The notes below the pieces were generated by a model. That model did not search any database, was not told the origin of the DNA, and saw only the letters and a program-made list of their open reading frames with translations. Source: Patescibacteria group bacterium (GTDB lineage: Bacteria > Patescibacteriota > JAQUNI01). From it: DNA of 64,000 nt. Made by a program: the position numbers and the translations under genes. The stretch covers positions 71,903 through 135,902 of the forward strand of contig JAQUNI010000002.1 of NCBI GenBank assembly GCA_028717685.1. Direction: 5' to 3'. Below are positions 7,840-39,610 of the stretch, piece by piece. The stretch's first letter is position 1. Each line of letters begins with the position of its first letter.

Positions 7840-7965
7840 TTTCATTTGTCATTGCGAGGAGGGCATTTAAGCCCGACGAAGCAATCTCCTAAATCTGTAT
7901 CAATGTAGTTCTATGAGATTGCTTCGTCGTCCGCTTGAGGGCGGACTCCTCGCAATGACAGAATT
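7840..7965. repeat. compound palindromic MITE-like element, copy 1
   Basis: GTCATTGCGAGGAG...GACGAAGCAATCTC // GAGATTGCTTCGTCG...CTCCTCGCAATGAC nested inverted repeats. A second copy lies at 27512-27658. Confidence 0.75.
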
Positions 7966-23684: not shown

Positions 23685-24272
23685 TTAAATATATAAATTT
23701 TCTATGTTATTTCTATCCTTTTTCCAGTTCGGGGGATTGTCAATAATATATTCTTGAATTTGTTGCAGGGCGTGTTCATTACGAATAATGTGGTCATAGA
23801 AACGGGATTGTCATTGAAAATGTAGATGATTTTGATATTTGTTAATTTCACGTGTGCAAATTGATTTGTATGAACGAATAATAACCGATAGCGATTGTGG
23901 CTTGGGTGATATCATAGACATTTGGTAATTTTTTGGACGTTGTTTATTCCTATGGTAGAGACGTTGCATTGCAACGTCTCTACGCGGATTATTATAATAA
24001 TTGTGGTTGATTATAATAATCCCATGCATATGGTTCGGCATCACAATATATTCGTCCAAAATCGCAAACGGAAAATGTTTGGGAATTTCTCGCCAATATT
24101 TATCCACAACGATTCCTATTCTGGATAATTGTATTACATTATTAATGACCTGGCCAAAGCATTCTTTCCGCTCTTTTGTGCAAACGGTCACGAAATACGC
24201 TCCTTCCATTGAATAATCATATTCTTGCAGTCTGGCCGATTCTGCGCGGAATTTATCTTGAAATAATACCAT
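23685..24272 (-). pseudogene. REP-associated tyrosine transposase (RAYT, Y1 HuH) interrupted by an in-frame TGA at 23811-23813
   Basis: N-terminal ORF (23811-24272) has YFVTVCTKERKECFG and MPNHMHGIII (HuH). After the TGA the same frame continues QSRFYDHIIRNEHALQQIQEYIIDNPPNW (catalytic-Tyr motif) to a TAA at 23685-23687. The TGA sits where RAYTs have a conserved Trp (WQRxFYDH). Confidence 0.65.
23955..23983. repeat. 29-bp perfect palindrome GTAGAGACGTTGCATTGCAACGTCTCTAC (inside RAYT coding sequence)
   Basis: Read directly; encodes RRDVAMQRLY in the RAYT frame. A near-identical copy is at 25007-25031. Confidence 0.8.
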
Positions 24273-24313
24273 TTATTTGATTAGAATTTGCGTTTCATTT
24301 TCCTGACCGTTTA

Positions 24314-24373
24314 CCTCGTTAGAGAAAACCACAGTCAGTGGAAACCGTTGGAGAACGAAGTTCTCTAATGGGG
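24314..24373. repeat. REP-like hairpin (CCTCGTTAGAGAA ... GTTCTCTAATGGGG) immediately 5' of the RAYT gene
   Basis: Inverted repeat arms with a ~35-nt loop. Same family as 12381-12514, 48417-48493 and 39404-39470. Confidence 0.6.
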
Positions 24374-24374
24374 T

Positions 24375-24992
24375 TTATATTTTCCGCACAAAATAGCAAA
24401 GCCAATTTGTATCTTCTTCTTGATGAATATGGTTTCTTAAAATTTTAAATCCATTCTGTTCTAGAATTTTTTGGAATTCTACTTTAGTGTAAAAAGCGAA
24501 ATACCGTTCAATCCCGCCGTGTTTTTTTTCTTTGATGATGCCCTCGTCAAGATGTCTTTTTTCTTTGAGGGCGATAAATCCTATGCCTTGGGATTTGATA
24601 ATTTTTCTGATGGCGCGGAGGACCTTGGCGACGCGGCGTTTGGGGATATGCAGGAGGGAAGCAGCAGCCCAAAAGCCGTCAAAATGATTCTGGGGAAATT
24701 TCAATTTGTAGAAATTCATCAAAATAAATTTGCCGCTTTTTACGAACTTGCGCGCTTCGTGAAGCAATCCAGAAGAGGCATCAATGCCAATATAATCAAA
24801 TTTGTTCTTTATAAACAGCAATGCATCTTTGCCTGACCCGCATCCAATGTCTATAACCCTTTTCCCCGAAATCAATTTTTGAAAAATTTTAAATTCCCTG
24901 TGCCAAAAAAGCGGGTTATTATAACCGCGGGCGGCATATTCTTTGGCGATTTTATTGTATGTTTTAATTGTTCTTTGACTAGGGTTCAACAT
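24375..24992 (-). CDS. class I SAM-dependent methyltransferase
   Basis: VIDIGCGSGKD (motif I), GIDAS. Start taken at MLNPSQ; the track N-terminal extension reads through the palindrome. Confidence 0.7.
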   Translation of the reverse strand: MLNPSQRTIKTYNKIAKEYAARGYNNPLFWHREFKIFQKLISGKRVIDIGCGSGKDALLFIKNKFDYIGIDASSGLLHEARKFVKSGKFILMNFYKLKFPQNHFDGFWAAASLLHIPKRRVAKVLRAIRKIIKSQGIGFIALKEKRHLDEGIIKEKKHGGIERYFAFYTKVEFQKILEQNGFKILRNHIHQEEDTNWLCYFVRKI

Positions 24993-25006
24993 ATATATTG
25001 CCGCAT

Positions 25007-25031
25007 AGAGACGTTGCATTGCAATGTCTCT
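25007..25031. repeat. second copy of the AGAGACGTTGCATTGCAA(C/T)GTCTCT palindrome
   Basis: One mismatch relative to copy 1. Lies between the methyltransferase start and the CYTH gene stop. Confidence 0.75.
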
Positions 25032-25036
25032 GCCAA

Positions 25037-25603
25037 TCATTTCATTTTTTTTAAAAGCAAAACCGGGTATCCAGTTTTAATCTGTTGTTTTTGCCAATCT
25101 TTGATTCCTAATTTTTGGGTTAAAAAGCGAGCACAACCCGCTCTTGCTATTTTAGCATTTAAAAAATTGCCTTGGGCTTCCACTTCTATGAAAAAGCCGA
25201 GATTTTTGACTTGATCCAAAGCAATTTCGAAATCTTCACATTGCCAATATTCTCTTTGTTTATCAACAGTGACGATTTTTTTGAAATCCAAAAATTTTAG
25301 AATTTTTCTAAGGTTCTCGGGTTGTTTTACTTCTACTTCATATTCTTCAGCATAATCTTGGGCGCTATCTTTGCGGCAGACAATAGATTTGTCGTATTCA
25401 AAAATCGCGCTGTCGGGATTTTGCCTTACGCGGAGCCATTCAATGGGACAGGGTTTGCGCGCGAAAAAATCGCGGTGGCAGGGGACATAATATTCATCAA
25501 TTTGGCGCAGAGATTTTTTTAGACTGCCTCCAAGAGTCCTTAATTTTTTGCGCGCCATCTCCAGATTGTCAAATTGAATTTTGATTTCCACTTCAATATT
25601 CAT
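25037..25603 (-). CDS. CYTH-domain protein (CyaB-like class IV adenylate cyclase / triphosphate tunnel metalloenzyme)
   Basis: Starts NIEVEIKIQF (EXEXK signature). ~188 aa. Start taken at the internal Met. Confidence 0.55.
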   Translation of the reverse strand: MNIEVEIKIQFDNLEMARKKLRTLGGSLKKSLRQIDEYYVPCHRDFFARKPCPIEWLRVRQNPDSAIFEYDKSIVCRKDSAQDYAEEYEVEVKQPENLRKILKFLDFKKIVTVDKQREYWQCEDFEIALDQVKNLGFFIEVEAQGNFLNAKIARAGCARFLTQKLGIKDWQKQQIKTGYPVLLLKKMK

Positions 25604-25724
25604 ATGGATTATTATAACAAAAATCATAAAAAAGTGCGATTTTGCAATATTGGCAATGCAGTATATAATAAGAACATCAGACTAGAATTTGTAATGGAAT
25701 AAACTTTCTCTAATGAGGTAAAAT

Positions 25725-26696
25725 ATGAATATTATTGAAGTCCAAAATTTAACCAAGAGATTCGGCGAGGTTACAGCGGTTAACGACCTTTCTTTTAATG
25801 TCCAAAAAGGGGAAATTTTTGGTTTCTTGGGGCCTAATGGCGCGGGCAAGTCCACGACGATTAATATTCTCTCTACGCTCCTTGTTCCTACGAAAGGGAA
25901 GGCGTTTATCAATAATTTTAATGTTCTTTCGGAGAGGGACAAGGTGCGCAAATCCATAGGGCTCGTTTTTCAAGACCCTTCTTTGGACGATCATCTGACC
26001 AGCGAGGAGAATCTGCGTTTTCACGCCAAGCTTTATGGCGTGCCAAAAGAAGAGTATAAAAAACGGATGGAAGAAGTGTTGCGCCTCGTGGACCTTTGGG
26101 ACCGCCGCAAAGAAGTGGTCAAAAATTTTTCCGGGGGAATGAAGCGCCGTTTGGAGATCGCGCGGGGTTTAATCCATTATCCGCAAGTGCTTTTTTTAGA
26201 TGAGCCGACGATAGGTCTTGATCCTCAAACGCGGGCGCATTTTTGGGAATACATTTTGAAATTGAAAAAAGAGCGAGCAATGACCATTTTTATGACCACC
26301 CATTATATGAATGAAGCGGAATATTGCGACCGGATCGGGATTATTGATTATGGCAAGCTGGTGGCTCTAGACACGCCATCCAATTTAAAGAAGAAAGTGG
26401 GATGCGATATTATTGAAATGAAAAGTGGGGATAAAGAGAAATTAAAAGAAGAACTGCAAGCGCGATATCAAGCTAAGATTAAAGAAAAGGATCATATTTT
26501 GCAGATGGAAGTGCAAGACGGCGAAAGATTTTTGCCGCGTCTTTTTAATGAACTCACGACTAAGATTGACGCGATTGCGCTTCGCAAGCCCACTTTGGAG
26601 GATGTTTTTCTGCGCCTGACTGGCCGCGCCATTCGGGAGAGACAAGCATCTTCGCAAGAGCTGATGCGCGCTCGCGGTAGGATGCACAGACATTAA
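25725..26696 (+). CDS. ABC transporter ATP-binding protein (ABC-2 type)
   Basis: GPNGAGKST, LSGGMKRRLEIA, LFLDEPTIGLD. Confidence 0.85.
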   Translation: MNIIEVQNLTKRFGEVTAVNDLSFNVQKGEIFGFLGPNGAGKSTTINILSTLLVPTKGKAFINNFNVLSERDKVRKSIGLVFQDPSLDDHLTSEENLRFHAKLYGVPKEEYKKRMEEVLRLVDLWDRRKEVVKNFSGGMKRRLEIARGLIHYPQVLFLDEPTIGLDPQTRAHFWEYILKLKKERAMTIFMTTHYMNEAEYCDRIGIIDYGKLVALDTPSNLKKKVGCDIIEMKSGDKEKLKEELQARYQAKIKEKDHILQMEVQDGERFLPRLFNELTTKIDAIALRKPTLEDVFLRLTGRAIRERQASSQELMRARGRMHRH

Positions 26697-26722
26697 AAAA
26701 GCCCTATTAAAATAAAGCTTTT

Positions 26723-27505
26723 ATGTATTTTATTCAACCTATCATTACAATTTGGCAGCGCGAAATTATCCGCTATTGGCGGGATAAAACCAGGATTTTT
26801 TCTACTCTTTTCCAGCCTTTGATGTTTTTGGTGATTTTTGGCGCGGGTTTAGGCAGCACTTTGGCGCGGGGAGATTTTGGCGTGGATTTTATCCAGTTTA
26901 TGTATCCGGGGATTATCGCAATGAGCGTAATGGGAGTGGCGTTTTTTTCCACCATTTCCACGGTCTGGGATCGGGAATTTGGTTTTTTAAAAGAGATTTT
27001 GGTCGCTCCGGTTTCGCGCACGGCGATCGCGATTGGCAAAACTTTGGGGGCGACGACCATCGCCGCTTTGCAGGGGCTGATTTTATTGGTGATTGCTCCT
27101 TTCATTGGACTCAATTTGCATCTTGTGATGATTCCCGAGATTTTTTCATTAATGCTTCTTCTTTCTTTTGCCGTGGCGGGGATGGGTTTGTTTATTGCTT
27201 CTTTAATGAAGACTACGGAGAGCTTTGGACTTTTAATGCAGGTCTTGGTTTTCCCGATGTTTTTCCTTTCGGGTGCTTTCTTTCCACTGACGAGCGTGCC
27301 TAGCTGGATGATGGCTTTATCGCGCTTAAATCCCTTAACCTATGGCGTGGACGCGATGCGGCAGATTTTTTTGCATAACCATATCTCGCCCGAGGTCAGC
27401 CATCGCCTTATCCTGCACCCCATTTATATTAATGTATTGTTTTTAGTTGTCTTTTCCGCAGTTTTAGTCTCCGCCGCCGTGATCGCGTTTAACAAGAAGA
27501 ATTGA
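26723..27505 (+). CDS. ABC-2 family transporter permease
   Basis: 6-TM protein directly downstream of the ATPase. Confidence 0.75.
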   Translation: MYFIQPIITIWQREIIRYWRDKTRIFSTLFQPLMFLVIFGAGLGSTLARGDFGVDFIQFMYPGIIAMSVMGVAFFSTISTVWDREFGFLKEILVAPVSRTAIAIGKTLGATTIAALQGLILLVIAPFIGLNLHLVMIPEIFSLMLLLSFAVAGMGLFIASLMKTTESFGLLMQVLVFPMFFLSGAFFPLTSVPSWMMALSRLNPLTYGVDAMRQIFLHNHISPEVSHRLILHPIYINVLFLVVFSAVLVSAAVIAFNKKN

Positions 27506-27511
27506 CCCTAT

Positions 27512-27658
27512 GAATTACGAAATGCATTTTTGTCATTGCGAGGGAGGCATTTGATGCCGACCGAAGCAATCTCCTAAATCTATATAAATACAGCTCGATG
27601 AGATTGCTTCGTCGGGCTTAAAAAGCCCTCCTCGCAATGACGACGCATTTCGTAATTC
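27512..27658. repeat. compound palindromic MITE-like element, copy 2
   Basis: GAATTACGAAATGC...GTCATTGCGAGGGAGG...CCTCCTCGCAATGAC...GCATTTCGTAATTC. Same family as 7840-7965. Confidence 0.75.
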
Positions 27659-27773
27659 AAGGTACATAAAAAACAACCCCCGAGCTTTAGGGAGGTTGTT
27701 TTTTTATTTAAGACAAATCAAACAAAGATATAAAAAAGCGGCTGATGCTTAAGAGCCGCTATAGAGCAATTTA

Positions 27774-29006
27774 TTAATATTGGCATAAGATTTCCGGAGC
27801 GCACCCCATTTTGATATAGGGAAAATTTTTCTGGACAAAATCCATTCGTCTCGGATAATTTTTTTGCAGATAGGATGGGTTTAATGTAGATATCCGTACT
27901 GCTTCAGCTAAATCTTCATTAACAACATTTTCTGGTTTGTTTTTATAAATAACCGCTTGTCTTAAGACATAGTCTGTGACATATTTTTCTCTTAAGGGAC
28001 TGATTTCGGACTCAACAATGTTACTATATTGTCCGGTTGTTGTTTGTTCTAGAATACTGAATAGATGATGTCCAATTTCATGTCCGATGGTACTCAAGAT
28101 ATAAGCTTTCATTTTATCTTCTTCGGATTGAAGAGATATATTTTGCAGATAGTCGAAGTCAATTGATTTTTCTACTCCAAAACTAAGCAATATAATTTTG
28201 TTGTTGTTTGAATGACCAGCATGAGCGCGAGTTTTATAGATATGTTGCAATTTTTCCGGGCTATCCACTTTTTCTAAAATCATTGCCGCTTCTAAATATT
28301 TTTCTTTGCTTTCAGCTATAAATCCGAACTTTTGGTCATGAATTAAAATTCCACGTTCACAGAGATCATCAATTTGATTAAAAAGCTCTTTGTTATAACG
28401 CGTCCAAGCTATCTTGTATTGGTCACTTTTGGTAATTTTTCCCACCTTTAGCAGTCTAAGAATATCGGGAGTGAAGCTTCGCAGAAGAAATTCACGGATT
28501 AAGGAGTTTGGTATGGGATAATCTTGGGTTGTGTCAAATCCTTGAGCAATAGGACCGATGGTGAGTATTTCTTCAGCCTCTTTAAAATTATCTGCGGTGT
28601 TGCTTAGAATTAACTCCTCGACATATTTTTGAATTTCCAATACTCCCAGTGCGGTTTGATTTTGAATTGCAGAAACAATTAACTCAAGTTTTTTTTGTCT
28701 TTTTTCAAAGATTTGAGTTTCTTTATTATTGATTATCTTTAGTTCTGAGAGTATTTTTGCTCGCTTTATTTTTAGGACTAAGTTTTGGGAAGGATTTACC
28801 GAATAGCGATGGCGGAAATTATAGCCATATTTTTTTTCCGCTTCTACGATAGCTTGATAAGATTGGAGTAGGGACAGATTTGGATTCGCCGACATCGTTG
28901 CTTCCGCCATTGTTAAATATTTTTCTAGATCTTCGGTGGTTATATTTCTTTCATTATTTTCGATTGCAGTAATAACTTTCGCTTTTTCATTTTGCTGTTC
29001 GGACAT
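27774..29006 (-). CDS. HExxH zinc-metallopeptidase-like protein (ImmA/IrrE-like motif HEIGHH)
   Basis: 410 aa, cytoplasmic. ILSTIGHEIGHHLFSIL is the only recognisable motif. Confidence 0.45.
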   Translation of the reverse strand: MSEQQNEKAKVITAIENNERNITTEDLEKYLTMAEATMSANPNLSLLQSYQAIVEAEKKYGYNFRHRYSVNPSQNLVLKIKRAKILSELKIINNKETQIFEKRQKKLELIVSAIQNQTALGVLEIQKYVEELILSNTADNFKEAEEILTIGPIAQGFDTTQDYPIPNSLIREFLLRSFTPDILRLLKVGKITKSDQYKIAWTRYNKELFNQIDDLCERGILIHDQKFGFIAESKEKYLEAAMILEKVDSPEKLQHIYKTRAHAGHSNNNKIILLSFGVEKSIDFDYLQNISLQSEEDKMKAYILSTIGHEIGHHLFSILEQTTTGQYSNIVESEISPLREKYVTDYVLRQAVIYKNKPENVVNEDLAEAVRISTLNPSYLQKNYPRRMDFVQKNFPYIKMGCAPEILCQY

Positions 29007-29284
29007 TGTTAGCCTCCTTATGATATTTTTTGGAATTTAAGCCAATTTGGGGTGAGTTGGGAAAAGAACATTAAGAATAAAATGGATGGTTTCAAAACCA
29101 TCCATTTTATTTAACTTGTTTTTTCGTTCTTTGTCAATATTTTGCGAGACTTTAGCGAATAGTTATACGTTGATCTGTCGCAATTGCCAAACCTAAGGCT
29201 TGAGAAATACACTTTTTTCTGCCGTGCTTTTGCAGTATTTTAATCAAATCGTTAATTATTCCTCCCAATCATATTCCTAAAAGT

Positions 29285-31135
29285 TTAAGGCGTCAGAGGC
29301 ACTAGATCGGGTATGCCGTCGCCATTTTGATCACCTTGAGGCGTCAGCGGCACAACATCGGGCAAACCGTCGCCATTCTGATCGTTGCTGGTTGCGGGAT
29401 TTTGATTTCCTTCCGGGGTCAAAGGCACGAGGTCGGGCAAGCCATCGCCGTCCTGGTCGTTGGAGGAGGAAGTGTTATCGCCCGGTTTCCACTCGGAAGT
29501 TAGCACAATGCGCAAGGGTTCTTGTTTATCGCAACTTAAACCCTTAAGATTGCCCTCCGCGTCATAAAGGTTTTTCAACTCCGCCGGCAGATTGTATTGT
29601 TGCGCCATTTCCCGCACTTTTTTGGTTGCTTCCTTGTAAGCGGCCATTCCTTCTTCTGAAGGCTCGAAGGAAATAACGGCTCCATTTTGACCATTATCTC
29701 GGATAAGTTTACCGCTGCCCACCATTTGGATTCCAGGCGCGATCGTTTCCGTGGATTCGGGTGTATAGGTCTCTGACCAGTGCCAGTTGCTATCAGGCGA
29801 AATGTGTAAAGCTTTCGCTGTTTGTTCTGGTCCAGCAAGGCTGGATTGATAATTGCCCGCTCGTGCTGCCCAAATTGGAAAGCTTTCACCCTCGCGAATC
29901 CCCGCTAAAGAAAAGGTGGTCAACATCAGATCCGTGGATTTTCCCTTAACATTATGCATTGGGATGTCAAGTAAGTAATAAGAATCAATCGTACGCGACT
30001 CTTTATGTATCAGGGCATCTAGGTCGGTATCAGTGGTGTAATACTGATAGACGCGCCAATCCGTGCGCCAGGCAGGTTCGCCAACGGCGGCATCGTCCGT
30101 ATGAAGTCCTTCCGAAAGAACCATTGTTTTTGACTGCGCGCTTTCCTGAAAAAATCCGCCGGCTAAGTTCATATTAAAAGTGCAGCCATAAGAGTCTGAT
30201 TGGCGGATGATATATTTTCCTGAAGTCTTTTCCTCTTCGCAATCGTTCGTGAACGCCTTTTCAGTCTTCAGCGCCAAGTCTGGGTAAGGAAAAAATTGCA
30301 TCATCTGCCAAGCCGTAACCAAATCCGTCAAAGCGTCCGGCGTTTCGTTCGGGCAATAATCTTGAATTACTTTATTGGTTAATTCTTCGGCAATTTGGGA
30401 AGCGCGCTCCCAGCTGGCATCGTTATATTGCTTGGCTTTGCCTGTGGCATCATCAACCGCGATTTTGCTCATCTCCGCCTCGAATTCTTGATACATACTT
30501 TGATTTTCAGGATCCTTAAAAGTGAATTCGAACCCATTGGGCGTTCCGCCGCCGACATAACTCGCGTGCGTTAATACGGTTTGATAGACGTTGTTCCCGA
30601 GATTTATCGTCGGCAGCCACTCCCATTCTTTTTTCACAGTATCCCAGTAACCCAAGGCAAAATCCTTTTTTGGCGCTTCATTTAAAGTGATTTTAAAAAT
30701 GAGTCCGCGCTTGAAATCTTTTTCACTAATTGAAATTTCAAATAAACCCCCGATCACCCCTTGGGGCCAGATGGATTCCGCGGCTTCCTTGATTGTGATT
30801 TTCGGTTTTTTTGTAAAAGCCGCTTGGGGAACAATAAGCTCCGCCTTGCCGCCCGCGGCGCTAGCCTGAAGAATATCGGGACGATCCGCCGCGCTTTGTT
30901 CACTAGCGCCCCGTTCCAAGAGGGCGGAAATCATAATCCCCGGATTAGGCAAGAAGAAAAGGAAGGAAGAGGCAACCAGCCAAAGCACAAGGAGCACTCC
31001 GGGTAAACAAAATAAAGCCACCAAGAGAATAATTAATTTTTTGTGGGATTTTTTGGGTGGAGCGGGGGAGGGGGTGTTTGCCACTGGCGGGGCAGGCGGA
31101 TTAGGCGGGACAGGGGGTAAGTTTTGTGTTTCCAT
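29285..31135 (-). CDS. membrane-anchored surface protein with Pro-rich N-terminus and C-terminal thrombospondin-type-3-like Ca-binding repeats
   Basis: PPVPPNPPAPP, a TM helix, and three NDQDGDGLPDLVPLTP-type repeats at the C-terminus. Confidence 0.5.
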   Translation of the reverse strand: METQNLPPVPPNPPAPPVANTPSPAPPKKSHKKLIILLVALFCLPGVLLVLWLVASSFLFFLPNPGIMISALLERGASEQSAADRPDILQASAAGGKAELIVPQAAFTKKPKITIKEAAESIWPQGVIGGLFEISISEKDFKRGLIFKITLNEAPKKDFALGYWDTVKKEWEWLPTINLGNNVYQTVLTHASYVGGGTPNGFEFTFKDPENQSMYQEFEAEMSKIAVDDATGKAKQYNDASWERASQIAEELTNKVIQDYCPNETPDALTDLVTAWQMMQFFPYPDLALKTEKAFTNDCEEEKTSGKYIIRQSDSYGCTFNMNLAGGFFQESAQSKTMVLSEGLHTDDAAVGEPAWRTDWRVYQYYTTDTDLDALIHKESRTIDSYYLLDIPMHNVKGKSTDLMLTTFSLAGIREGESFPIWAARAGNYQSSLAGPEQTAKALHISPDSNWHWSETYTPESTETIAPGIQMVGSGKLIRDNGQNGAVISFEPSEEGMAAYKEATKKVREMAQQYNLPAELKNLYDAEGNLKGLSCDKQEPLRIVLTSEWKPGDNTSSSNDQDGDGLPDLVPLTPEGNQNPATSNDQNGDGLPDVVPLTPQGDQNGDGIPDLVPLTP

Positions 31136-31454
31136 GTTTTTGTGTTTATTTGCTAATTTTATTTTTGTGAAAAGTGCTAAAATTTTTGGATTCTTTTAGA
31201 TTTTATGAATCTTACTTGAACTATTTTCAAGTCCCGCAGTTGAATGCAGGATAAATTCCAGAGCGCGTCAGCTTTGCTGGCACGCCGTTTAAATTCTTAA
31301 TTAAAGAATATCACAATTCGTAAACAATTGCATCTTTTAAAGACTGATTTTTGAAATCTGTCTTTTCTCCTATTTTTTGCCTTCTATTTTAAGCCGGTGG
31401 CATTTTTAGAGATTTCGGAGAGCTTTTGATGAGAATAGATTTTTTTAGTAATAA

Positions 31455-31490
31455 AATAAAAAGGTGAGGGCTGAAAAACCTTCACCTTCG
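31455..31490 (-). terminator. rho-independent terminator of the RT gene
   Basis: Minus strand AAGGTGAAGGTTTTTCAGCCCTCACCTTTTTATTTT, preceded by a second hairpin. Confidence 0.6.
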
Positions 31491-31528
31491 CGTTCTTAAA
31501 CTTACACGGGTTTGACCTGCGTAAGTTT

Positions 31529-32791
31529 TTATTTCTCTTCGGTTTGAATCTCGCGAAGCAACTTATAATAAGGTCCCGTAATTTGTGCTGGTAGATCATT
31601 GTAATTAAAATCAAACGACCCATTGGTGCCAAGCTTTCCATAGATGGGCTTCAATGAAGCAATAAACCCCTTTACTTTGGGTCGCAAAGATAGATCGGAA
31701 ATCGCCCGGTAGATGATTCCCCGCCAGCGGCGCACTGTCTTTTTCGGCAGAACGATTTTACTATTGCCTTCCTTATCTTTGATAATCCGCAGACCGGTAA
31801 TAAGTGGCGCTTCGTGAATAATACCGCGGTGCGACACCTTTTTGGCATTGGGTTTAAAACCGTATTTTTCAATAGTCTCGTAAAATTTTCCTTGAACATC
31901 TTCAGGAATTGGCTTTTGCGCTGACACCACAATATTATCAACATACATTCCCGCTTCAAATCGGAATTTGTCTTGACGTTTATTGTCAGCGAGGAAAACA
32001 AAGAATGGGGACGGACACAGCGAACAAAGTTCGCTAAAAAATCCGCTTTCTGTTAAATAGATATAAAACAGAAAAGGCGCGGTGGGCGTGCCTTGCGGCA
32101 AAATATAGTTCCAGGTTGTCAACTTGATAATGAGCTCGGTGAGCGCCTTGGCAATTTTTGCCTTACCGGCCAGAAGCCACCGGTCATCGTCTTCAAACAG
32201 CCAGCCGTCCAATATACTTGAAGCCCTGTAAAAGAAGGAAAAACTTAAATGTTTCTTTGCGTCTTCAAGGTCCCGAGCATAGGAAGATATTTCATCCTCT
32301 TCTTTTATAAGCTTCATTCTTTCTGTAAGTGCTCGGCAATGGCTAACATCAAGCTCGTATGCTTCTAGTTCGCTGATTATCCGGTTGAAAACAATCTCTT
32401 CTAAATTCCGGACGCTCGTTGACGGAAAGGCATCTGCCAAATCTAACTGCCAAAACCATTTAGCGTCTTTGTGGCGATGAGCATGCCATACGTAAGACGT
32501 TAATTCTCCTCCCGGATACAAGCCATATAGACCATCGTGAAGCATATTCCACATTTTGTGAAGAAATCTTCGGAGGATTTTTTTCTGTATCGCTTTCAGT
32601 TCTTCAGATGGAATAAAAAGAGTGCGAAAACCGTCTGATTTCTTCGGAACTTCAAGTACACGATAATCCGGCGTGAGCAATGATATGCGGCAGACATCTA
32701 CCTTTAATATACTAGCTAAAACCGCTTCAGCCTTTGGCAAGCCAAATTGCTGGAGCATTTCGGCTTCTCTTTCTTCTCGCGATTTTCGCAC
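31529..32791 (-). CDS. stand-alone reverse transcriptase, retron/Abi lineage, with non-canonical YVDN in place of YADD
   Basis: RT domains: FRTLFIPS (1), WFWQLDLADAFPS (3), LPQGTPTAPF (4, QGxxxP type), MYVDNIVV (5), PLITGLRII (VTG-like thumb). GTG start at 32791 with AAGGAGG RBS; the track uses the upstream TTG at 32827. Confidence 0.75.
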   Translation of the reverse strand: MRKSREEREAEMLQQFGLPKAEAVLASILKVDVCRISLLTPDYRVLEVPKKSDGFRTLFIPSEELKAIQKKILRRFLHKMWNMLHDGLYGLYPGGELTSYVWHAHRHKDAKWFWQLDLADAFPSTSVRNLEEIVFNRIISELEAYELDVSHCRALTERMKLIKEEDEISSYARDLEDAKKHLSFSFFYRASSILDGWLFEDDDRWLLAGKAKIAKALTELIIKLTTWNYILPQGTPTAPFLFYIYLTESGFFSELCSLCPSPFFVFLADNKRQDKFRFEAGMYVDNIVVSAQKPIPEDVQGKFYETIEKYGFKPNAKKVSHRGIIHEAPLITGLRIIKDKEGNSKIVLPKKTVRRWRGIIYRAISDLSLRPKVKGFIASLKPIYGKLGTNGSFDFNYNDLPAQITGPYYKLLREIQTEEK

Positions 32792-33170
32792 TTTACTTCC
32801 CTCCTTTTTGAAATTGGGAACGAACAAAAGTGTGGGGACTCATTTTTGCACAGCTTCTTGATTTCCGCTGAAAATAGCGCAATTTTACAACCAGCCGTCA
32901 GATACTGACGACCGCCGTACTTTGGTTGGAGTTAACCGCCCAGCTTGTACGATTTATTCAAGCCGCGTTTGACCCCACTGGTTTCAGCATATCGCTATAA
33001 AGATAATTTGACAAGTAGAAATAAAAAAGGCGGCATATGAAGCGCGTCCCCTGAAGTTTTGGATGGATAATATTATAATTCCCGAAGTAAAGTGATCTGG
33101 TTTGTGGAAAGTTTGGTCAAAGGCAAATGGTTTTATTGGTTTAATTTTAAGAGTTTTTTGTAATTTTAGT

Positions 33171-33695
33171 TTAATCGGTTTTTTCATTCTCTAACTTTTC
33201 TGGCCAAGGATAAGGCATTGACTCTGAAATTGGTATTTGCTTTATTTTCCCTTCTTCTTCCATAATAACCACAACATCTAGTCCTGAGCGCAAGCTGCTT
33301 TCGTAAATCAGTTGCTTGCAGATATGGCAATTTGGTCCGGTAATCGCCACAATATCCTTTTCGCCGTGAATAGCGGCGTGAGCCAACGCCGTTGCTTCCG
33401 AATGCATAGTTAAAGTTTCCGTGTCTGAAAGATAAGAAACGCCAGTATAGATATTTCCTTTTTTTGTCATCAAGGCAACGGCATACCCATCGCCACTTTT
33501 GGGATAAGTATTTTTCAACGCTTCATTGCTTAACCTTAAAAGATTTTTACATTCTTCATCGGTTAGCTCGTAGTATGTTTTGTTGCCTAAAGTTTTTGCT
33601 TTCATAATTGTTTTGCGGCGCTTGTCCGCAGGGAGGAGAGCATAAGTGGGGTGCGGAACAAAGCGGAACAGAGTAGGTTCAGAATGAATCCACAC
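33171..33695 (-). CDS. cytidine/deoxycytidine deaminase family protein (CDA fold)
   Basis: HSEATAL (HxE) and PNCHICKQ (PCxxC) zinc ligands, collinear with tetrameric Cdd over ~125 aa. GTG start 1 nt after the PP2C stop; an internal ATG at 33605 is possible. Confidence 0.65.
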   Translation of the reverse strand: MWIHSEPTLFRFVPHPTYALLPADKRRKTIMKAKTLGNKTYYELTDEECKNLLRLSNEALKNTYPKSGDGYAVALMTKKGNIYTGVSYLSDTETLTMHSEATALAHAAIHGEKDIVAITGPNCHICKQLIYESSLRSGLDVVVIMEEEGKIKQIPISESMPYPWPEKLENEKTD

Positions 33696-33696
33696 A

Positions 33697-34473
33697 TTAG
33701 AATTTAATTATTACTATACTTCTGTCATCCTTGGATTTAGTTGATTTATATTTTTTCCATTTATCTGGATCTTCTTTTTCAACTTTTTCAAAAATTTTTT
33801 CCCATGCTTCAATTGAAACTTCTTGAGGTATATCGAAATAACCATCAGTAAATAGTTCAATTATTTTTATTTTATCTTGATTATATTCAAAAATTTTTAC
33901 AAATTTAGATGGTGTTTTAGTGCCATCAATGACTCCATAACCAAGAAGTTCTTGAGGATTGTTTTGATATTCAAATTGTTTTAAAAGTAAAGGCATTATG
34001 TGCTCTCTGCTCCCTTTAATATCATTTGTTTCTCTAATATATTTTGCTCTTTCTTCTGAATTATCAATATCAATCTGTTTTGTTTCCTGATAAACTTCAG
34101 TTCCATTAATCCTCATGCCTGAATCTCCTAAATAGGTGATTATTATTTTATTATTAATGAGCCTTACGCAAATAAATCCACAGGTAAACCTATGTTTTGG
34201 GTCTTTAGTTTCTTCCAAAATTTTTAATTTGCCATATAATTCCTTGGTTTTTTGGTTAAGATAATTGACTAATTCAATTCCATTTAGATTAGCTGATAAG
34301 CACTCATTTACGACAATTCGAGAAACAAGTTCTCCTCCTGTTTTGTCATTATATTTTTTGCCACTTTTATCTGTGGCGCCATCGGCTATAGCAAAACAAT
34401 TCTTATTATAGGCAAAATAATCTTCATTTCTATCTCTGGTTTTTCCTTTTGAAAAAGTTCGAACTTGCGCCAT
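33697..34473 (-). CDS. PP2C-family (PPM) serine/threonine phosphatase
   Basis: RDRNEDYF, AIADGATD, LGDSGMRI, FTDGYFD, KDDRSIVII correspond to PPM motifs 1, 2, 5, 8 and 11. Confidence 0.6.
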   Translation of the reverse strand: MAQVRTFSKGKTRDRNEDYFAYNKNCFAIADGATDKSGKKYNDKTGGELVSRIVVNECLSANLNGIELVNYLNQKTKELYGKLKILEETKDPKHRFTCGFICVRLINNKIIITYLGDSGMRINGTEVYQETKQIDIDNSEERAKYIRETNDIKGSREHIMPLLLKQFEYQNNPQELLGYGVIDGTKTPSKFVKIFEYNQDKIKIIELFTDGYFDIPQEVSIEAWEKIFEKVEKEDPDKWKKYKSTKSKDDRSIVIIKF

Positions 34474-34756
34474 GATTTTTTGTTTCAGAGAAATGCGATT
34501 AAATTAGAAGCGAGGTTCATTCTCAATTTCACTTAACAATTTTTAAATGCACTTATTTAAAATCCACGCACTAAGGAAAAGCTTAGTGCGGGAAAAACTG
34601 CCCGCAAAATCCGCGATGTTTAGGTTCGTCGGGGATGTCTGCCTTAGGTCATTCAGGCGTTCGTCCCGAGGACTCAGCCCCGAGGGACTCTGATGAGTCT
34701 TTAAGACCCGAAGAGCGGACGGTCTCGCACACCCCCGCCCTCGCTTTCATAAATTA

Positions 34757-35314
34757 CTAAAATTTTAACCTTTTTCTTAACTCCGTAGACGACAAAAGTT
34801 TTTTCGACCATTCTTTGTAATGTCTAGTATCTTCAATTAGTCCACCATGATAAACCTGCATGTAAACAAGATTGTTCTCGTAGAAGATTTTTTCCTCGCC
34901 TTCTACAAATCCTCTTTTTTTTGTAAATCTGTTTCTATACAAAAACTTATTTTCTCGGAAACCGTCTAATCCTCGGTGAGTTGTTTTTCCTGCTCCTGCA
35001 CGCAATGCCTTTTTCAGAAAATCAAAGACCACTTTTGGCCCTAATTTTCTACCTGCGCCTATAAGGATTCCATAGTAGTTAACTCCGTATATAGGATGCT
35101 TCCGATAGAAAGTTATTGTTTGCCCCATATTCAACTCTTCTCCGCTATAGCGGTCAATCACTACATAAGGTCCTTTCCGGTAGGTTATAACCTTAAACCA
35201 AGGCAAAAATGGGTCCAAAAATTTCTGTGGGCTTCCGCCGTAACCTTTGGTTTTATCTTCTCTCAAAGATATTTCTCGTAATTTTTTTAAATGATTTTGT
35301 AGGTTTTTACTCAT
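34757..35314 (-). CDS. hypothetical protein (possible toxin partner of upstream HTH)
   Basis: 186 aa, basic; ATGAGTAA start/stop overlap with the HTH gene. No recognisable domain. Confidence 0.4.
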   Translation of the reverse strand: MSKNLQNHLKKLREISLREDKTKGYGGSPQKFLDPFLPWFKVITYRKGPYVVIDRYSGEELNMGQTITFYRKHPIYGVNYYGILIGAGRKLGPKVVFDFLKKALRAGAGKTTHRGLDGFRENKFLYRNRFTKKRGFVEGEEKIFYENNLVYMQVYHGGLIEDTRHYKEWSKKLLSSTELRKRLKF

Positions 35315-35459
35315 ATTTAAGTAATTCCTTTGGTTCAACACCAAGTGCTTTCGTCATTTTTTTAATAGTGAGTAAGGAAGGGTTTCTCTTACCTCGTTCT
35401 AGTCTGCTTATATATATAACTTTGGTGGACGCTAAGCGTTCTTGCCATGTACTACACAT
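35307..35459 (-). CDS. XRE-family helix-turn-helix fragment (50 aa, lacks helix 1)
   Basis: QERLASTKVIYISRLERGKRNPSLLTIKKMTKALGVEPKELL matches XRE helices 2-3. The ORF starts 14 nt from the tRNA 3' end; the track extension over the tRNA is spurious. Confidence 0.45.
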   Translation of the reverse strand: MCSTWQERLASTKVIYISRLERGKRNPSLLTIKKMTKALGVEPKELLKYE

Positions 35460-35473
35460 ACAGCACTCTTTAG

Positions 35474-35547
35474 TCGGGGATGTGGGACTTGAACCCACGG
35501 CCTCGCGCACCCCATGCGCGCGCGCTAGCCAACTGCGCCAATCCCCG
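35474..35547 (-). tRNA. tRNA-Pro (anticodon GGG)
   Basis: 74-nt cloverleaf: acceptor CGGGGAT/ATCCCCG, D-arm GCGC-AGTTGGCTA-GCGC, anticodon stem CGCGC/GCGCG with loop ATGGGGT, T-arm GTGGG-TTCAAGT-CCCAC, discriminator A, no encoded CCA. Confidence 0.85.
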
Positions 35548-35622
35548 TAATTGTAATTTTCAATTTTTAATTTCTAATTTTCAATCAATTTTTAATAATT
35601 CAATTTTTAATTTCAAAAAGGG

Positions 35623-35877
35623 TTAAATTTTTTTCTTAACCATAAAGTAGTAAATCAGCGCGCCGAGCCAGTAGGTGAACACCAGAACCAAGACCCAGAC
35701 AATTTTTTCATTTTCTTTTGCGGTTGGAAAATCTCTTTTTAGAAGGTCAACGAGCATCCAAATCCAAAAAATCGCTCCGCCGATAAAGAATAGAGCGATT
35801 ACGCTCCAGATGAAGAAGACAAAAATAATTGGTAGGAAGAAAAGGGGGAGGGGGTTGAAGCTTAGAATAGTTTTCAT
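35623..35877 (-). CDS. PLDc_N-domain small membrane protein
   Basis: 84 aa, 2 TM; IWMLVDLLKRDF ... LGALIYYF is the PLD-nuclease N-terminal motif. Confidence 0.6.
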   Translation of the reverse strand: MKTILSFNPLPLFFLPIIFVFFIWSVIALFFIGGAIFWIWMLVDLLKRDFPTAKENEKIVWVLVLVFTYWLGALIYYFMVKKKI

Positions 35878-35980
35878 AAATAAATTGATTTATTTAGAAA
35901 ATTATGATAAGATAAGCTGTTCTTTTGTGTCGTTCCTTGAATCTACATTTTTCTCATTTTTTGCGAAAGGAGTTTTAAGA

Positions 35981-36676
35981 ATGTCAGCGGAATATTTAGA
36001 CTTGGTGGCTACGGGGTTGGTAAGGGAAGAACTGAGCTCTGATTATCGCGATCATCTTCCGGAAGCGCTTCTGGATTTAGTGGAGAAGCCCTTTTATTGT
36101 TTCATTCCCGATGGTTTTGCTTTTGGCAGTGTGGGCGGCGCGGCGGTAATTGACGAAATTTACATTGATTCCGAGCATAATGTCTACATTTTTTCTGAAG
36201 GTTTTTCCACTTGGAGGGGGTTTTTCTTTCCCGCCTTGAAATTTCCCTGTCGCGGGAAGAGATGGCAGTTTGTGTATCATACAAGTCCCTTTGGCGCGGA
36301 AGAGCAGAGGCTTTCTTCAGATGTTCATTTCGGCGATCAGCCAAAGATGGAAATCTATGAATCGAAAGACATTCAGGGATTAGGAAATAATCTTTCTCGG
36401 CGTTATTTCTATTGCCTTTATCGGCTTTCTATTTCGGGTAAAACGATTGCGGGAATGTTCCGAAGCCGCGTGACGCAGGTGGCGTGCGATGGAGAGCATG
36501 GGCATCTGCTCTTAAATTTCGCGCCTAAAATCCAGAAGCCCACAATGTTTTTCCAATATTTAAGTTTATACAAAGGAAGCAATCCTCATATGAGTTTGTG
36601 CTATTATTATTCTCCCTATTTAGAAAAACCTTTTGAGGAGGACGTGGAAATTCATTTTTATACTCTCGCAATTTAA
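35981..36676 (+). CDS. hypothetical protein
   Basis: ATG at 35981 with AAAGGAG RBS; the upstream track extension is unlikely. Hairpin terminator AACCCTAATAAAAATAGGGTTTTTTTT follows. Confidence 0.45.
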   Translation: MSAEYLDLVATGLVREELSSDYRDHLPEALLDLVEKPFYCFIPDGFAFGSVGGAAVIDEIYIDSEHNVYIFSEGFSTWRGFFFPALKFPCRGKRWQFVYHTSPFGAEEQRLSSDVHFGDQPKMEIYESKDIQGLGNNLSRRYFYCLYRLSISGKTIAGMFRSRVTQVACDGEHGHLLLNFAPKIQKPTMFFQYLSLYKGSNPHMSLCYYYSPYLEKPFEEDVEIHFYTLAI

Positions 36677-36814
36677 CCCTAATAAAAATAGGGTTTTTTT
36701 TATCCCGCACCTTTAGAAGAATACCCTGCCAGTCTAGTTAGCGATGATGAATGAGTATCAAAAAGGTCCTTATCTTCCGAGGTCTTTATACTCCGCTAAG
36801 TAAAGGTGCAGGAT

Positions 36815-36985
36815 TTATTTTACCTTTGCCATTGTTTTGACACATTTCGCGCAAGCTAAAATTTGCTTGTCTTTCAAAGTAATTTTTTGCAAATTTAATT
36901 TTTGCATTCTTTTGGTCGCGATATTGGAATGGCTGCGGGTGTAACCCATGCGGGGTTTGCGTCCGCAAATCTGGCAGAACATCAT
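36815..36985 (-). CDS. rpmB: 50S ribosomal protein L28
   Basis: MMFCQICGRKPRMGYTRSHSNIATKRMQKLNLQ...CAKCVK (56 aa), read by hand on the minus strand. The track lists a spurious ORF in another frame here. Confidence 0.75.
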   Translation of the reverse strand: MMFCQICGRKPRMGYTRSHSNIATKRMQKLNLQKITLKDKQILACAKCVKTMAKVK

Positions 36986-37110
36986 AAAATTATTCTTTTA
37001 TAGAGTAAGATACTAAAGTTAAATTAACATTCTTTTGCCCAATTTGCAAGGCTTATTCCTTTATGTTAAAATAAAGACTATCTTTCTTCGCTTTTTAATT
37101 ATTTTTTTAT

Positions 37111-37764
37111 TTGATGTTTTTATTTTCTTTTTTATCTGAACCGATTGTGTTTTTGGCTTGGCTGGTCGCGATGGCAATTTCGGTAACCCTCCATGAATTT
37201 GCCCACGCCCTCTCCGCCTATCTTCAGGGGGACGCAACCGCAAAATACAGCGGACGCTTGAGCCTCAATCCCTTAAAACATCTTGATTTATGGGGGACAT
37301 TGATGCTGCTTTTGGTTGGTTTTGGCTGGGGTAAGCCCGTGCCTTACAATCCTTACAATTTAAGAAACCAGAAGTGGGGACCCTCTATTGTCGCTCTCGC
37401 GGGTCCGGGAGCCAATCTTTTTTTGATTCTTTTTTTTGGTTTGATCCTAAAAATATTGGTGGTGGGCGGAGTTTTAGATGTGGGCAATATGCTCTATATT
37501 TTGATAGAAATGATTATTATTTTAAACGCGGTTTGGTTTACGTTTAATCTTATTCCGATTCCCCCTCTGGATGGTTCTAAATTGCTTTTTGCGATTTTGC
37601 CTCGCCGTTTTGACCATTGGAAAATATTTCTGGCTGTAAGAGGTCCTTTGATTCTAATCTTTTTGATTATTTTGGATCGCCTGCTTAATTTTTCTTTGTT
37701 GGAATCGCTTTTCAATTTGGTAATCCGCGTTGTGGCGGGTATGTTTGGGTTATCTCTATTATAG
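37111..37764 (+). CDS. site-2 protease family (M50B) membrane metalloprotease
   Basis: LHEFAHAL HExxH in TM1, LNPLKHLD, polytopic. Confidence 0.7.
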   Translation: MMFLFSFLSEPIVFLAWLVAMAISVTLHEFAHALSAYLQGDATAKYSGRLSLNPLKHLDLWGTLMLLLVGFGWGKPVPYNPYNLRNQKWGPSIVALAGPGANLFLILFFGLILKILVVGGVLDVGNMLYILIEMIIILNAVWFTFNLIPIPPLDGSKLLFAILPRRFDHWKIFLAVRGPLILIFLIILDRLLNFSLLESLFNLVIRVVAGMFGLSLL

Positions 37765-37871
37765 GATTTGACTCTTATATTTTCTTATGCTATTTTTGAT
37801 ATAGGATTCGCTTTTTTAGCGCAAGGTTTTAGTTTACCTTTTATAATTTTTGAATCCACTATCTATTTTTT

Positions 37872-38306
37872 ATGCCCACCATTTCCCAATTAGTGCGCAA
37901 AGGGCGCAAAACTAAAATAAGGAAATTTAAAACGCCGGCTCTGCATCGGACTTTTAATGCTATTCGCCGTCGGGGAAGAATGGAACCTATTGGCAGTCCA
38001 TTTAAAAGAGGGGTTTGCGTTAAGGTTTTTACCACTACTCCCAAAAAACCAAACTCGGCTTTGCGCAAGGTAGCGAGAGTGCGTTTGACTAATGGAATGG
38101 AAGTGGCCGCTTATATTCCGGGCGAGGGCCATAATCTACAGGAACACTCTATAGTTTTAATCCGCGGCGGCAGAGTGAAAGATTTGCCCGGCGTGCGTTA
38201 TCACGTTGTGCGGGGGATTTTAGACACGGAAGGCGTGCAAGGTCGCAAACAAGGTCGCTCCCGCTACGGCGCCAAGAAGATAAGCGAGACAAAGAAAGAA
38301 GAATAA
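37872..38306 (+). CDS. rpsL: 30S ribosomal protein S12 (with internal insertion)
   Basis: [29 protein letters not shown]. Confidence 0.95.
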
Positions 38307-38342
38307 TCTTAATTCACTTTTTACTTTTAACTTTTTTATATC

Positions 38343-38810
38343 GTGCCTCGGAGAAAAAGAAAATTCAAAAGAGATATTTTACCTGATCCAAAGTATAGCA
38401 GCGTTACGGTCGCGCGCTTTGTTAATCATTTGATGGAGAGAGGAAAGAAATCCGTAGCAGAGGGAATACTTTATCGCGCTTTGGATATTGTGGCGGAGAA
38501 AACCAAGAAAGATTCCTTGGAGATTTTTGATTTAGCGCTTAAAAATGTAGCTCCGGTTTTAGAAGTGAAATCCAAAAGAATTGGAGGGGCGAATTATCAA
38601 ATTCCCGTGGAGGTGAGGATGCCGCGCAAGATGACTCTTGCGATGCGTTGGATTATCGGTGTTGCTCGCTTGCGCAAAGGAAAGCCAATGGCTGAAAAAC
38701 TCGCTGAGGAACTCATTACCGCGTCCAAGCGCGAAGGCGAGGCAATGCGGAAACGGGAAAATATTCAAAGAATGGCCGATGCCAATCGTGCCTTTGCCCA
38801 TTTCGCTTAA
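38343..38810 (+). CDS. rpsG: 30S ribosomal protein S7
   Basis: ILPDPKY ... NRAFAHF. Confidence 0.95.
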   Translation: MPRRKRKFKRDILPDPKYSSVTVARFVNHLMERGKKSVAEGILYRALDIVAEKTKKDSLEIFDLALKNVAPVLEVKSKRIGGANYQIPVEVRMPRKMTLAMRWIIGVARLRKGKPMAEKLAEELITASKREGEAMRKRENIQRMADANRAFAHFA

Positions 38811-38891
38811 TTATTTAAGGTTTCCCGTAAAAGCGAAGCTTTTATGGGTATCTTATAAAAGGGGGATTTTAAAAAAATTAAAAAGAAAAAA

Positions 38892-39305
38892 ATGAAACAG
38901 AGAATCTTATCTTGCCTCTCCGCAAGCGTGGTCGCGCTCGCGGGGAACACTGCCTTAGCGCAATCTACAAGTTATGATTATGAAAATACCGTCGGAAATA
39001 CCGTCGCGACGGGCATGGGTGTTGGACTGATAATTTTCTGGATTGTGGGTATGATTATTGGCTTGTTGCTTTTCATCTTGTGGATTTTGATGCTCATTGA
39101 CTGCATTAAGCGGGATTTTTCCCAAAAGACTTTGTGGATTATTCTCCTCATTGTTTTGGGTTGGATTGGTGCCGTGGCTTACTACTTTGCCGTCAAAAGA
39201 AAGAACATTACTGGCGGACCGGCGACTCCTTCGCAAACTACGCCACCTCAAGCATCTTCTGAACCTCAATCACCACCATCTTCTCCTGCCGCGCCTACGG
39301 TTTAA
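38892..39305 (+). CDS. PLDc_N-domain membrane protein with signal peptide and Pro/Ser-rich tail
   Basis: ILMLIDCIKRDF ... GAVAYYF. Paralog of 35623-35877. Sits between rpsG and fusA. Confidence 0.55.
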   Translation: MKQRILSCLSASVVALAGNTALAQSTSYDYENTVGNTVATGMGVGLIIFWIVGMIIGLLLFILWILMLIDCIKRDFSQKTLWIILLIVLGWIGAVAYYFAVKRKNITGGPATPSQTTPPQASSEPQSPPSSPAAPTV

Positions 39306-39403
39306 TTGATGTTTAAACAGAAAGAGGATAAATTTTGAGGTAATGGCGGGTTTTATAGAATTTTAAAATTCTTGAGTTTTTTGAATTGATTTTCGGATTG
39401 ACC

Positions 39404-39470
39404 TTGTTAGAAACACGCCCCGCAACTGGGCTAGTGGTTGGGTTTTATGTTCCGCATGAGTTTTGATGGG
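39404..39470. repeat. variant copy of the GTTAGAAACAYGCCCCGC repeat family
   Basis: GTTAGAAACACGCCCCGC ... GGGCTAGTGGTTGGG ... CCGCATGAGTTT aligns with 12381-12514. Confidence 0.5.
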
Positions 39471-39471
39471 A

Positions 39472-39499
39472 TTGACTTTTTGGTACTTATCGGTTAAAT
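39472..39499 (+). promoter_or_regulatory. sigma70-like promoter (TTGACT-16-TTAAAT) upstream of fusA
   Basis: Read directly; lies at the end of the repeat element, ~110 nt before the fusA GTG. Confidence 0.4.
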
Positions 39500-39610
39500 T
39501 ATCTTTTGGGTATTTTTGTTTTGCAAAAAATTTAAATTGCAACTTTTAACTTTTTCAGCCCAAGGCTGATCGGCCTCGGGCCGAAACTTTTCACTTTTAA
39601 CTTATCTTTC

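Follow-up and report, generated by a model that had tools for sequence, protein, structure and literature searches.

Is the block of genes that abuts tRNA-Pro(GGG) in this Candidatus Doudnabacteria (Patescibacteria) chromosome one mobile island that has lost its integrase, or a set of pieces that came and went separately? The DNA analyzed, here called the window, is a stretch of 64,000 nucleotides (nt) of contig JAQUNI010000002.1. The M50 peptidase that flanks the block has 98% identity to a Doudnabacteria metagenome-assembled genome (MAG). The block spans about 7.7 kb (27774-35459), and its tRNA-proximal end lies 14 nt from the tRNA gene. Seven sizeable open reading frames (ORFs) were called within 27774-35510, every one on the minus strand (27774-29006, 29285-31135, 31529-32827, 33171-33695, 33697-34473, 34757-35344 and 35307-35510). 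A sequence-only reading of the window had described seven minus-strand genes that end beside tRNA-Pro and lack an integrase. Its coordinates and strands were borne out, and no integrase domain was detected in any block protein by profile searches against Pfam and NCBIfam. The intergenic gaps of the block are also too short for an integrase gene.

Direct observations of gene content, synteny, indels, tRNA-like remnants and RNA covariation bear on this question. The interval from an ABC-2 permease gene to tRNA-Pro is probably a variable accessory region of at least five independent units, and not one element. The unit next to the tRNA would be a decayed integration remnant of about 0.7-0.9 kb, in which a truncated helix-turn-helix (HTH) gene is translationally coupled to a DUF5680 gene. 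A PP2C-like/cytidine-deaminase-like gene pair would form the second unit, an autonomous retron-type reverse transcriptase (RT) unit the third, and the lineage-restricted genes for a repeat-bearing membrane protein and a HExxH protein the fourth and fifth, all gained and lost separately. From the earlier proposal of a single decayed island we retain the accessory interval and some 0.9 kb beside the tRNA; synteny with a sister species, internal indels and the lack of a distal repeat speak against extending it to the whole block. The island aspect is ordinary genome variation. The notable parts of the locus are the RT with its RNA and the tRNA-Pro half-copies seen across the phylum.

Comparison with related genomes

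The window was compared with a sister species (about 92% nt identity), represented by assembly GCA_041644975.1 and an independent 134-kb ENA contig spanning the whole region (loci L098, L099 and L100), and with a more distant relative (about 78% nt identity), represented by GCA_964459815.1 and matching metagenome contigs. The sister species aligns at 89-94% nt identity across 27666-31151, 31164-33086 and 33080-34538. Five of the seven block genes, encoding the PP2C-like, deaminase, RT, 616-amino-acid (aa) and 410-aa proteins, have the same order and strand there, at 86-94% aa identity (PP2C-like protein 88%, deaminase 88.7%, 410-aa protein 92.7%, 616-aa protein 94-96%). The sister species differs by three discrete indels. 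In the first, which falls exactly at the tRNA 3' end, window positions 34539-35468 are replaced by an unrelated 1.43 kb with a gene for a 435-aa methyltransferase; the window side contains the truncated HTH gene (ΔHTH), the DUF5680 gene, a tRNA-like remnant and a terminator. The second adds 1.96 kb to the sister species between the deaminase gene and the RT unit. Its extra genes (L099 7636-9716), encoding proteins of 326 aa, 84 aa and 248 aa (DUF711), are missing from the window. The third is a 7.56-kb cobalamin salvage and transport (cob) operon, found in the sister species between the permease and 410-aa genes.

Synteny with the 78% relative extends up to the permease stop codon, after which other genes are present: cobalamin salvage and transport genes, a HepT/MNT pair, a 174-aa gene and, in some contigs, an rve transposase. 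The block side of the tRNA was reached through permease homologues. Anchoring on the M50 gene gave 80 Patescibacteria loci. In 32 of them no more than a few kb separate tRNA-Pro(GGG) from M50, and the synteny extends widely to L28 and S12; this widespread linkage of tRNA-Pro, L28, M50 and S12 indicates that the right flank is ancestral. A distant relative, L042, has equal ABC-to-tRNA spacing and ordinary genes in the interval, and is uninformative. At the sequence level, the comparison supports a permease-to-tRNA-Pro interval that is accessory and variable, and the block is not present or absent in relatives as one unit, since the sister species lacks only two of the seven genes.

Entry of the whole 7.7 kb at tRNA-Pro as one island, with later loss of the integrase, would account for several features. 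All genes point the same way and reach up to the tRNA 3' end, and the HTH gene is cut short at this junction. The 80 syntenic M50 loci of other Patescibacteria contain none of the seven, and the 78% relative has other genes in the interval. We nevertheless consider such an entry improbable. Tiling of the 64-kb window revealed no tRNA-like repeat where the block ends on its far side or past that point, while an attR-like remnant lies inside it, about 0.8 kb from the tRNA. The neighbour of the 410-aa gene in the sister species is the cob operon and not the permease, and the RT unit is autonomous elsewhere. Besides the internal indels, the block genes fall into several transcription units in a promoter/terminator consensus scan. 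The GC content of third codon positions (GC3) ranges from 0.18 in the PP2C-like gene to 0.50 in the 616-aa gene, with z-scores of -4.2 and +1.4, respectively, -2.2 for the 410-aa gene and values near 0 for the RT and deaminase genes. This heterogeneity fits a mosaic better than a single acquisition.

The far end of the block also argues against one island. The earlier reading had taken a palindrome of about 150 bp as its other border. The palindrome is real: a compound element of about 156 nt (27510-27665) follows the permease stop codon, with 54-nt arms (27532-27585 and 27588-27641) that are 76% complementary, and with further outer arms. It does not mark a border, being a window-only insertion unrelated to the tRNA. 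The sister species has 13 nt at that site, a second partial copy (86%) is present at window positions 7845-7929, and two short-read contigs end inside the element. It is a multi-copy insertion that resembles a miniature inverted-repeat transposable element (MITE) and not an island edge. It shares with MITEs and repetitive extragenic palindromic (REP) sequences a compound palindromic structure and an intergenic site behind a stop codon. As with those elements, there is another copy in the window, sister genomes differ in its presence, and short-read assemblies are interrupted at it. Unlike them, it has no identified target-site duplication and no identified transposase partner. In the sister species, the cob operon is flanked by a direct repeat of about 125 nt, made of the permease 3' end and terminator (L098 10697-10821 and 18352-18476), with copies identical at 90 of 91 positions. 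The window junction (27509/27510) has a single copy of this repeat and no cob operon, which is consistent with deletion of the operon between the repeats. The apparent left border of the block reflects the absence of the cob operon together with the MITE-like insertion.

The tRNA-Pro junction

The tRNA-Pro(GGG) gene is intact (35473-35547, minus strand; ARAGORN; Rfam tRNA, 59.8 bits). The first ATG of the HTH frame lies at 35459, 14 nt from the tRNA 3' end, leaving a 5'-truncated XRE-type remnant of about 50 aa (35307-35459, minus strand; Pfam HTH_3, 8.7e-9). The match is limited to profile positions 25-55 of 55, so that the five-helix domain is incomplete, in agreement with the earlier description of an HTH without helix 1. 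Its missing N-terminal part would run into the tRNA gene. The stop codon of ΔHTH overlaps the ATG of the next gene (34757-35314, minus strand), the cargo of the tRNA-proximal islet. Its 185-aa product (186 aa in the earlier reading, where it was called unknown) belongs to DUF5680 (Pfam, 2.8e-17). A single-sequence AlphaFold model of this protein was unusable (pLDDT 36), and a literature search on DUF5680 returned nothing relevant. ΔHTH is absent from the sister species, and the DUF5680 gene from both the sister species and the 80 M50-anchored loci. A probe search found no DUF5680 relative on viral contigs.

A degenerate copy of the body and 3' part of tRNA-Pro, resembling an attR remnant, was found in the intergenic region that follows the DUF5680 gene (34625-34745, minus strand). 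Aligned locally to the tRNA, it reaches a score of 29.5, which none of 500 shuffles and none of the 890 other window tiles attained. The remnant reads GAAAGCGAGGGCGGGGGTGTGCGAGACCGT ... ACATCCCCGAC, the second part being an exact match to the tRNA; no Rfam family was assigned to it. The earlier reading had suggested an outward search for a longer direct repeat of the tRNA 3' end; no other tile of the window matches the tRNA as well as this internal remnant. The window order is tRNA, ΔHTH-DUF5680 and tRNA-like remnant, with a bracketed segment of about 0.7-0.9 kb. A terminator-like hairpin (34567-34590, minus strand; consensus scan) closes this segment, and the window-specific sequence ends at 34539, the blastn breakpoint against sister locus L099. 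The islet (about 34539-35468) is bracketed by the tRNA on one side and a partial tRNA copy on the other, and the sister species differ in its presence.

The homologue of the remnant in the sister species is a clean tRNA-Pro copy that starts in the anticodon loop, ends with the discriminator and has a compensated T-stem of its own. A gap of 33 nt separates the real tRNA from this copy, and the methyltransferase ATG follows directly. The tRNA-Pro genes of the two species are only 83.5% identical, against about 90% in the flanks, and their T-arms are swapped in a compensatory manner; replacement of the tRNA 3' part would give such a pattern. In addition, the contigs of two independent MAG assemblies of relatives (L010 and L011) begin within about 85 nt of the tRNA (window positions 35629-35632, approximately). 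A repeat, or a junction that varies among strains, would be expected to break assemblies in this way. The tRNA 3' end is supported as a recombination point by the different content found there in the sister species and by the displaced copy that both retain.

ΔHTH-DUF5680 looks like a decayed integration remnant, and is the sole part of the block that resembles one. We infer a history of integration and deletion at tRNA-Pro, in which an integrase-bearing element would have recombined with the 3' portion of the tRNA. The integrase gene and the beginning of the HTH gene would have been lost later by deletion, with the tRNA kept intact by selection. The donor would then hold GGGGTGCGCGAGGCCGTGGGTTCAAGTCCCACATCCCCGA beside a tyrosine or serine recombinase and a full-length HTH-DUF5680 pair. 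Islands and integrative elements that target tRNA genes have integrase-less remnants, similar to cis-mobilizable elements (CIMEs), that form by site-specific accretion and decay. The window resembles these elements and remnants in the position at the 3' end of a tRNA gene, in the order of intact tRNA, cargo and displaced partial copy of the tRNA 3' part, in the polymorphism of this content between close relatives, and in the partial tRNA copies elsewhere in the phylum. It differs in that no integrase, excisionase or donor element is detectable for the islet, in the tiny size of the bracketed segment (about 0.8 kb with two genes, one truncated), in the degenerate, interrupted distal repeat, and in that most of the 7.7-kb block lies outside the bracket.

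Of 33 loci, 7 (L087, L081, L070, L066, L025, L032 and L099) have partial copies of the 3' part of their local tRNA-Pro just past the tRNA, above a reverse-strand null, and unrelated Patescibacteria are among them. The half-copies are in tandem in L087 and L066, and split in L070. In L081 the tRNA end and its flank are duplicated around an insert of about 180 nt. Loci L013, L014 and L042 have a plain terminator downstream of tRNA-Pro(GGG) instead of a half-copy. We read the half-copies as traces of recurrent site-specific integration and decay, ΔHTH-DUF5680 being one such remnant, and tRNA-Pro looks like a recurrent integration site.

Several points weigh against this history. Neither an integrase nor an attP-bearing donor nor an empty site was found, and a probe search of viral contigs with the tRNA 3' half as attP gave no match. 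The window remnant is degenerate, with an internal insertion of about 60-85 nt. The comparison draws on just one sister species and one more distant relative, all MAGs. In several lineages the half-copy lies merely 18-40 nt past the tRNA and is free of cargo, so it could be a functional RNA element, acting in processing or termination, rather than an att scar. Because no donor was found, a functional role for the tRNA half-copy is a live alternative.

A rival reading is a block that never involved integration: an ordinary lineage-specific chromosome segment with local indels, in which the tRNA-like sequence is a functional or duplicated RNA element and not mobile DNA. The cargo-free half-copies, the lack of an integrase anywhere in the block, its normal tetranucleotide distance and the sharing of most of it with the sister species all agree with this. 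We still think it unlikely, for the content swap between the sister species falls exactly at the tRNA 3' end, the HTH gene is cut precisely at the tRNA, and the T-arm was replaced in a compensatory way between genomes whose flanks are about 90% identical. The duplication around an insert in L081 and the tandem copies in L087 and L066 are also difficult to reconcile with it, as are the toxin-antitoxin pair and rve transposase in the same interval of a relative. Integration followed by decay at tRNA-Pro is our preferred explanation for the islet, and for the islet only.

The retron-type reverse transcriptase and its RNA

The RT identified in the earlier reading was confirmed by Pfam RVT_1 (5e-12) and by retron-type models (down to 1.5e-22). 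The gene (31529-32791, minus strand) starts at GTG 32791, with AGGAGG 8 nt upstream, and encodes 420 aa, as in the GenBank record. The best model for the window RT is retron type VI. All 20 aligned members of its family match retron RT models, the best being RT_VI (5e-39). The best 25 PADLOC matches are all retron-type RT models, one of them a CRISPR-associated RT, and include no model named for defence-associated reverse transcriptases (DRT) or the unknown group (UG). The scores are far below the NCBIfam retron cutoffs, and there is no clear placement in types I-XIII. Motif B is QGxxxAP, and the best matches are again retron-type models. A diversity-generating retroelement was rejected: no template-repeat/variable-repeat (TR/VR) pair was found, and the sole long repeat pair within 24000-40000 is the internal tandem repeat of the 616-aa gene.

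Retron RTs are recognized by NAxxH in region X and VTG in region Y (Mestre et al. 2020, PMC7736814). The window RT has an invariant HAxxH (H115 to H119) in region X, with H in place of the retron N, and LITGL in region Y (T344 and G345), with I in place of the retron V. The catalytic box is YVDN (residues 295-298) in the window and Y-x-D-[N/G] in the family. Y295 and D297 are invariant, and none of the 20 sequences has the second Asp of the canonical YxDD box. This replacement of the second catalytic Asp makes RT activity uncertain, a further point against our interpretation.

A structured RNA of about 160 nt lies directly upstream of the RT gene on the same strand (32825-32984). In an alignment of ten loci (the window, L001, L002, L004, L006, L007, L008, L099, L101 and L103), 32 pairs were predicted, 13 of them compensatory, and 96% of cells are paired. 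Shuffled alignments gave 6.1±1.5 compensatory pairs (0 of 500 reached the observed value) and slid controls 1-3. There is a closing stem, GUGGGG(Y)C / G(R)CCCCAC, and an invariant hairpin, GGCGGyyGkCAG-nAn-CUGmc..CUGG. The covariance model matches RT-upstream sites only, within 1.23 Mb, and no counterpart was found in Rfam. A promoter-like site, TTGTCA-17-TATGCT (32986-33014, minus strand; consensus scan), stands directly upstream of the RNA, and hairpin terminators follow the RT gene. As predicted from these elements, the RT unit is self-contained, with a promoter-like site, RNA, RT and terminator.

Forty-six RT relatives were found in a word-indexed database, and all source-named matches are Patescibacteria. 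The homologues are solo genes amid unrelated housekeeping genes, in eight distinct contexts outside the lineage, each preceded by about 200-530 nt of non-coding DNA. Neither a conserved effector gene nor an effector domain fused to the RT was detected, and the neighbours differ in every unrelated locus. The RT family and the RNA core motif were not found on viral contigs, with a motif pattern validated on known copies. The RT-RNA unit of the sister species lies between the two copies of an 86-nt direct repeat (L099 9662-9747 and 11425-11510), which are 79% identical and promoter-like, and the window retains only the inner part of the upstream copy. RT units at other loci have no flanking repeats, and no general mobility signature was seen.

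Could the RT, its RNA, the deaminase, the PP2C-like protein and perhaps the HTH protein form one tripartite retron-type defence system, which would make the core of the block one functional system? The partner of type VI retrons is a small Cro/C1 HTH protein (PMC7736814), type VI is the best model for the window RT, and ΔHTH has a weak match to HTH_VI (3e-5). In both sister species the deaminase and PP2C-like genes precede the RT unit and share its strand. Such a system is nonetheless very improbable. At the eight unrelated contexts the RT homologues have no deaminase, PP2C or HTH neighbour, and the sister species has three genes between deaminase and RT; the deaminase and PP2C-like proteins are, for these two reasons, not considered partners of the RT. 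The RT unit also has its own promoter-like site and terminator. A type VI link between HTH and RT was likewise rejected, since the sister species has no such HTH gene and the RT stands alone at other loci, and the HTH profile matches are those of generic XRE proteins.

A retron consists of an RT, a contiguous msr-msd non-coding RNA (ncRNA) and an effector (Mestre et al. 2020, PMC7736814). The RT unit is similar to retrons in its profile matches, in its region-X xAxxH and region-Y (V/I)TG motifs, and in a structured RNA directly upstream on the same strand, whose 5' and 3' ends form a closing stem (a1/a2-like). It is different in having no effector, a YxD[N/G] box, no clear type among I-XIII and an RNA without an Rfam family. 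In retrons, synthesis of msDNA is primed from a branching G. By analogy with retrons, we infer an RT that may be active and would copy a part of its own RNA into DNA. Literature searches, within what could be searched, returned no description of a retron-like system in Patescibacteria.

Solo defence RTs with an upstream structured ncRNA and no separate effector gene are found among DRT2/DRT9-type systems, of the UG/abortive infection (Abi) class. The RT unit shares this layout of one RT, one structured upstream ncRNA and no effector gene. It differs in that its best 25 PADLOC matches include no DRT or UG model, and in its shorter RNA (about 160 nt).

We tentatively suggest, at somewhat less than even confidence, that the RT unit may represent a new, effector-less retron-like class restricted to Patescibacteria and that tRNA-Pro(GGG) may serve small integrative elements throughout the phylum as a landing site. 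If this is true, an RNA-templated product, and not a separate toxin, would carry the function of the RT unit. Bacteria of the Candidate Phyla Radiation have tiny genomes and, to our knowledge, few mobile elements or defence systems have been recognized in them. The locus gives a sequence-level picture of variation in a streamlined genome, with modules swapped singly between conserved flanks and a tRNA-Pro gene that would bear the scars of repeated integration in several lineages. Its most useful lead is a compact, testable RT and RNA pair with an unusual catalytic box and no effector partner.

Other genes of the block

The PP2C-like gene (33697-34473, minus strand; 258 aa) had been called a PP2C phosphatase. 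This identity is backed by a weak profile match only (NCBIfam Stp1 family, 4.6e-6, far below cutoff) and by PP2C-like motifs seen by eye in the translation (RNED, DGATD, GDSG, TDG and DDRS). The gene is strikingly AT-rich (GC 0.29, with the GC3 given above lying 4.2 standard units below the mean of 52 window genes), and this composition suggests an origin different from that of its neighbours. The cytidine-deaminase-like gene follows directly downstream (33171-33695, minus strand). Here the cdd-like assignment stands (Pfam dCMP_cyt_deam_1, 7e-6; solved cytidine deaminases in the PDB, 1.4e-6). The start call varies, the sister gene having 171 aa in L099 and 144 aa in L100, and the true start may lie further in.

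The 616-aa protein (29285-31135, minus strand) is probably membrane-anchored. Its earlier description as a calcium-repeat surface protein is plausible, given an N-terminal transmembrane segment and three tandem C-terminal DxDGDGxPD repeats in the translation. Between this gene and that of the 410-aa protein there is a hairpin of 16-17 bp (29076-29111), terminator-like on both strands in the palindrome and consensus scans.

The 410-aa HExxH protein (27774-29006, minus strand) belongs to no recognized family. Its family has 154 representatives, which have the C-terminal region in common and an invariant HExxH. Neither the protein nor 10 remote relatives matched any Pfam family, Peptidase_M78 included, and the protein has no PADLOC, PHROG or PDB sequence match. 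An AlphaFold2 model (pLDDT 69.6) gave no Foldseek match below E 0.2. The ImmA/IrrE metalloprotease identity proposed earlier was rejected, as nothing but HExxH is conserved.

Neighbouring genes

Some differences from the relatives were also seen outside the block. A 231-aa ORF (35927-36813), function unknown, is absent from the 78% relative (L011) and present in the sister species. Its true start is at about 35981; the longer 333-aa ORF overlaps the opposite-strand PLDc_N gene. On the other side, a gene for a 221-aa methyltransferase (24284-25038) is an insertion relative to the 78% relative, and is present in the sister species at 76% aa identity. Near it, a 153-aa minus-strand ORF (23811-24272) has a weak match to IS200-like Y1 transposases (Pfam Y1_Tnp, 8.8e-4), and is kept in the 78% relative with 43% aa identity.

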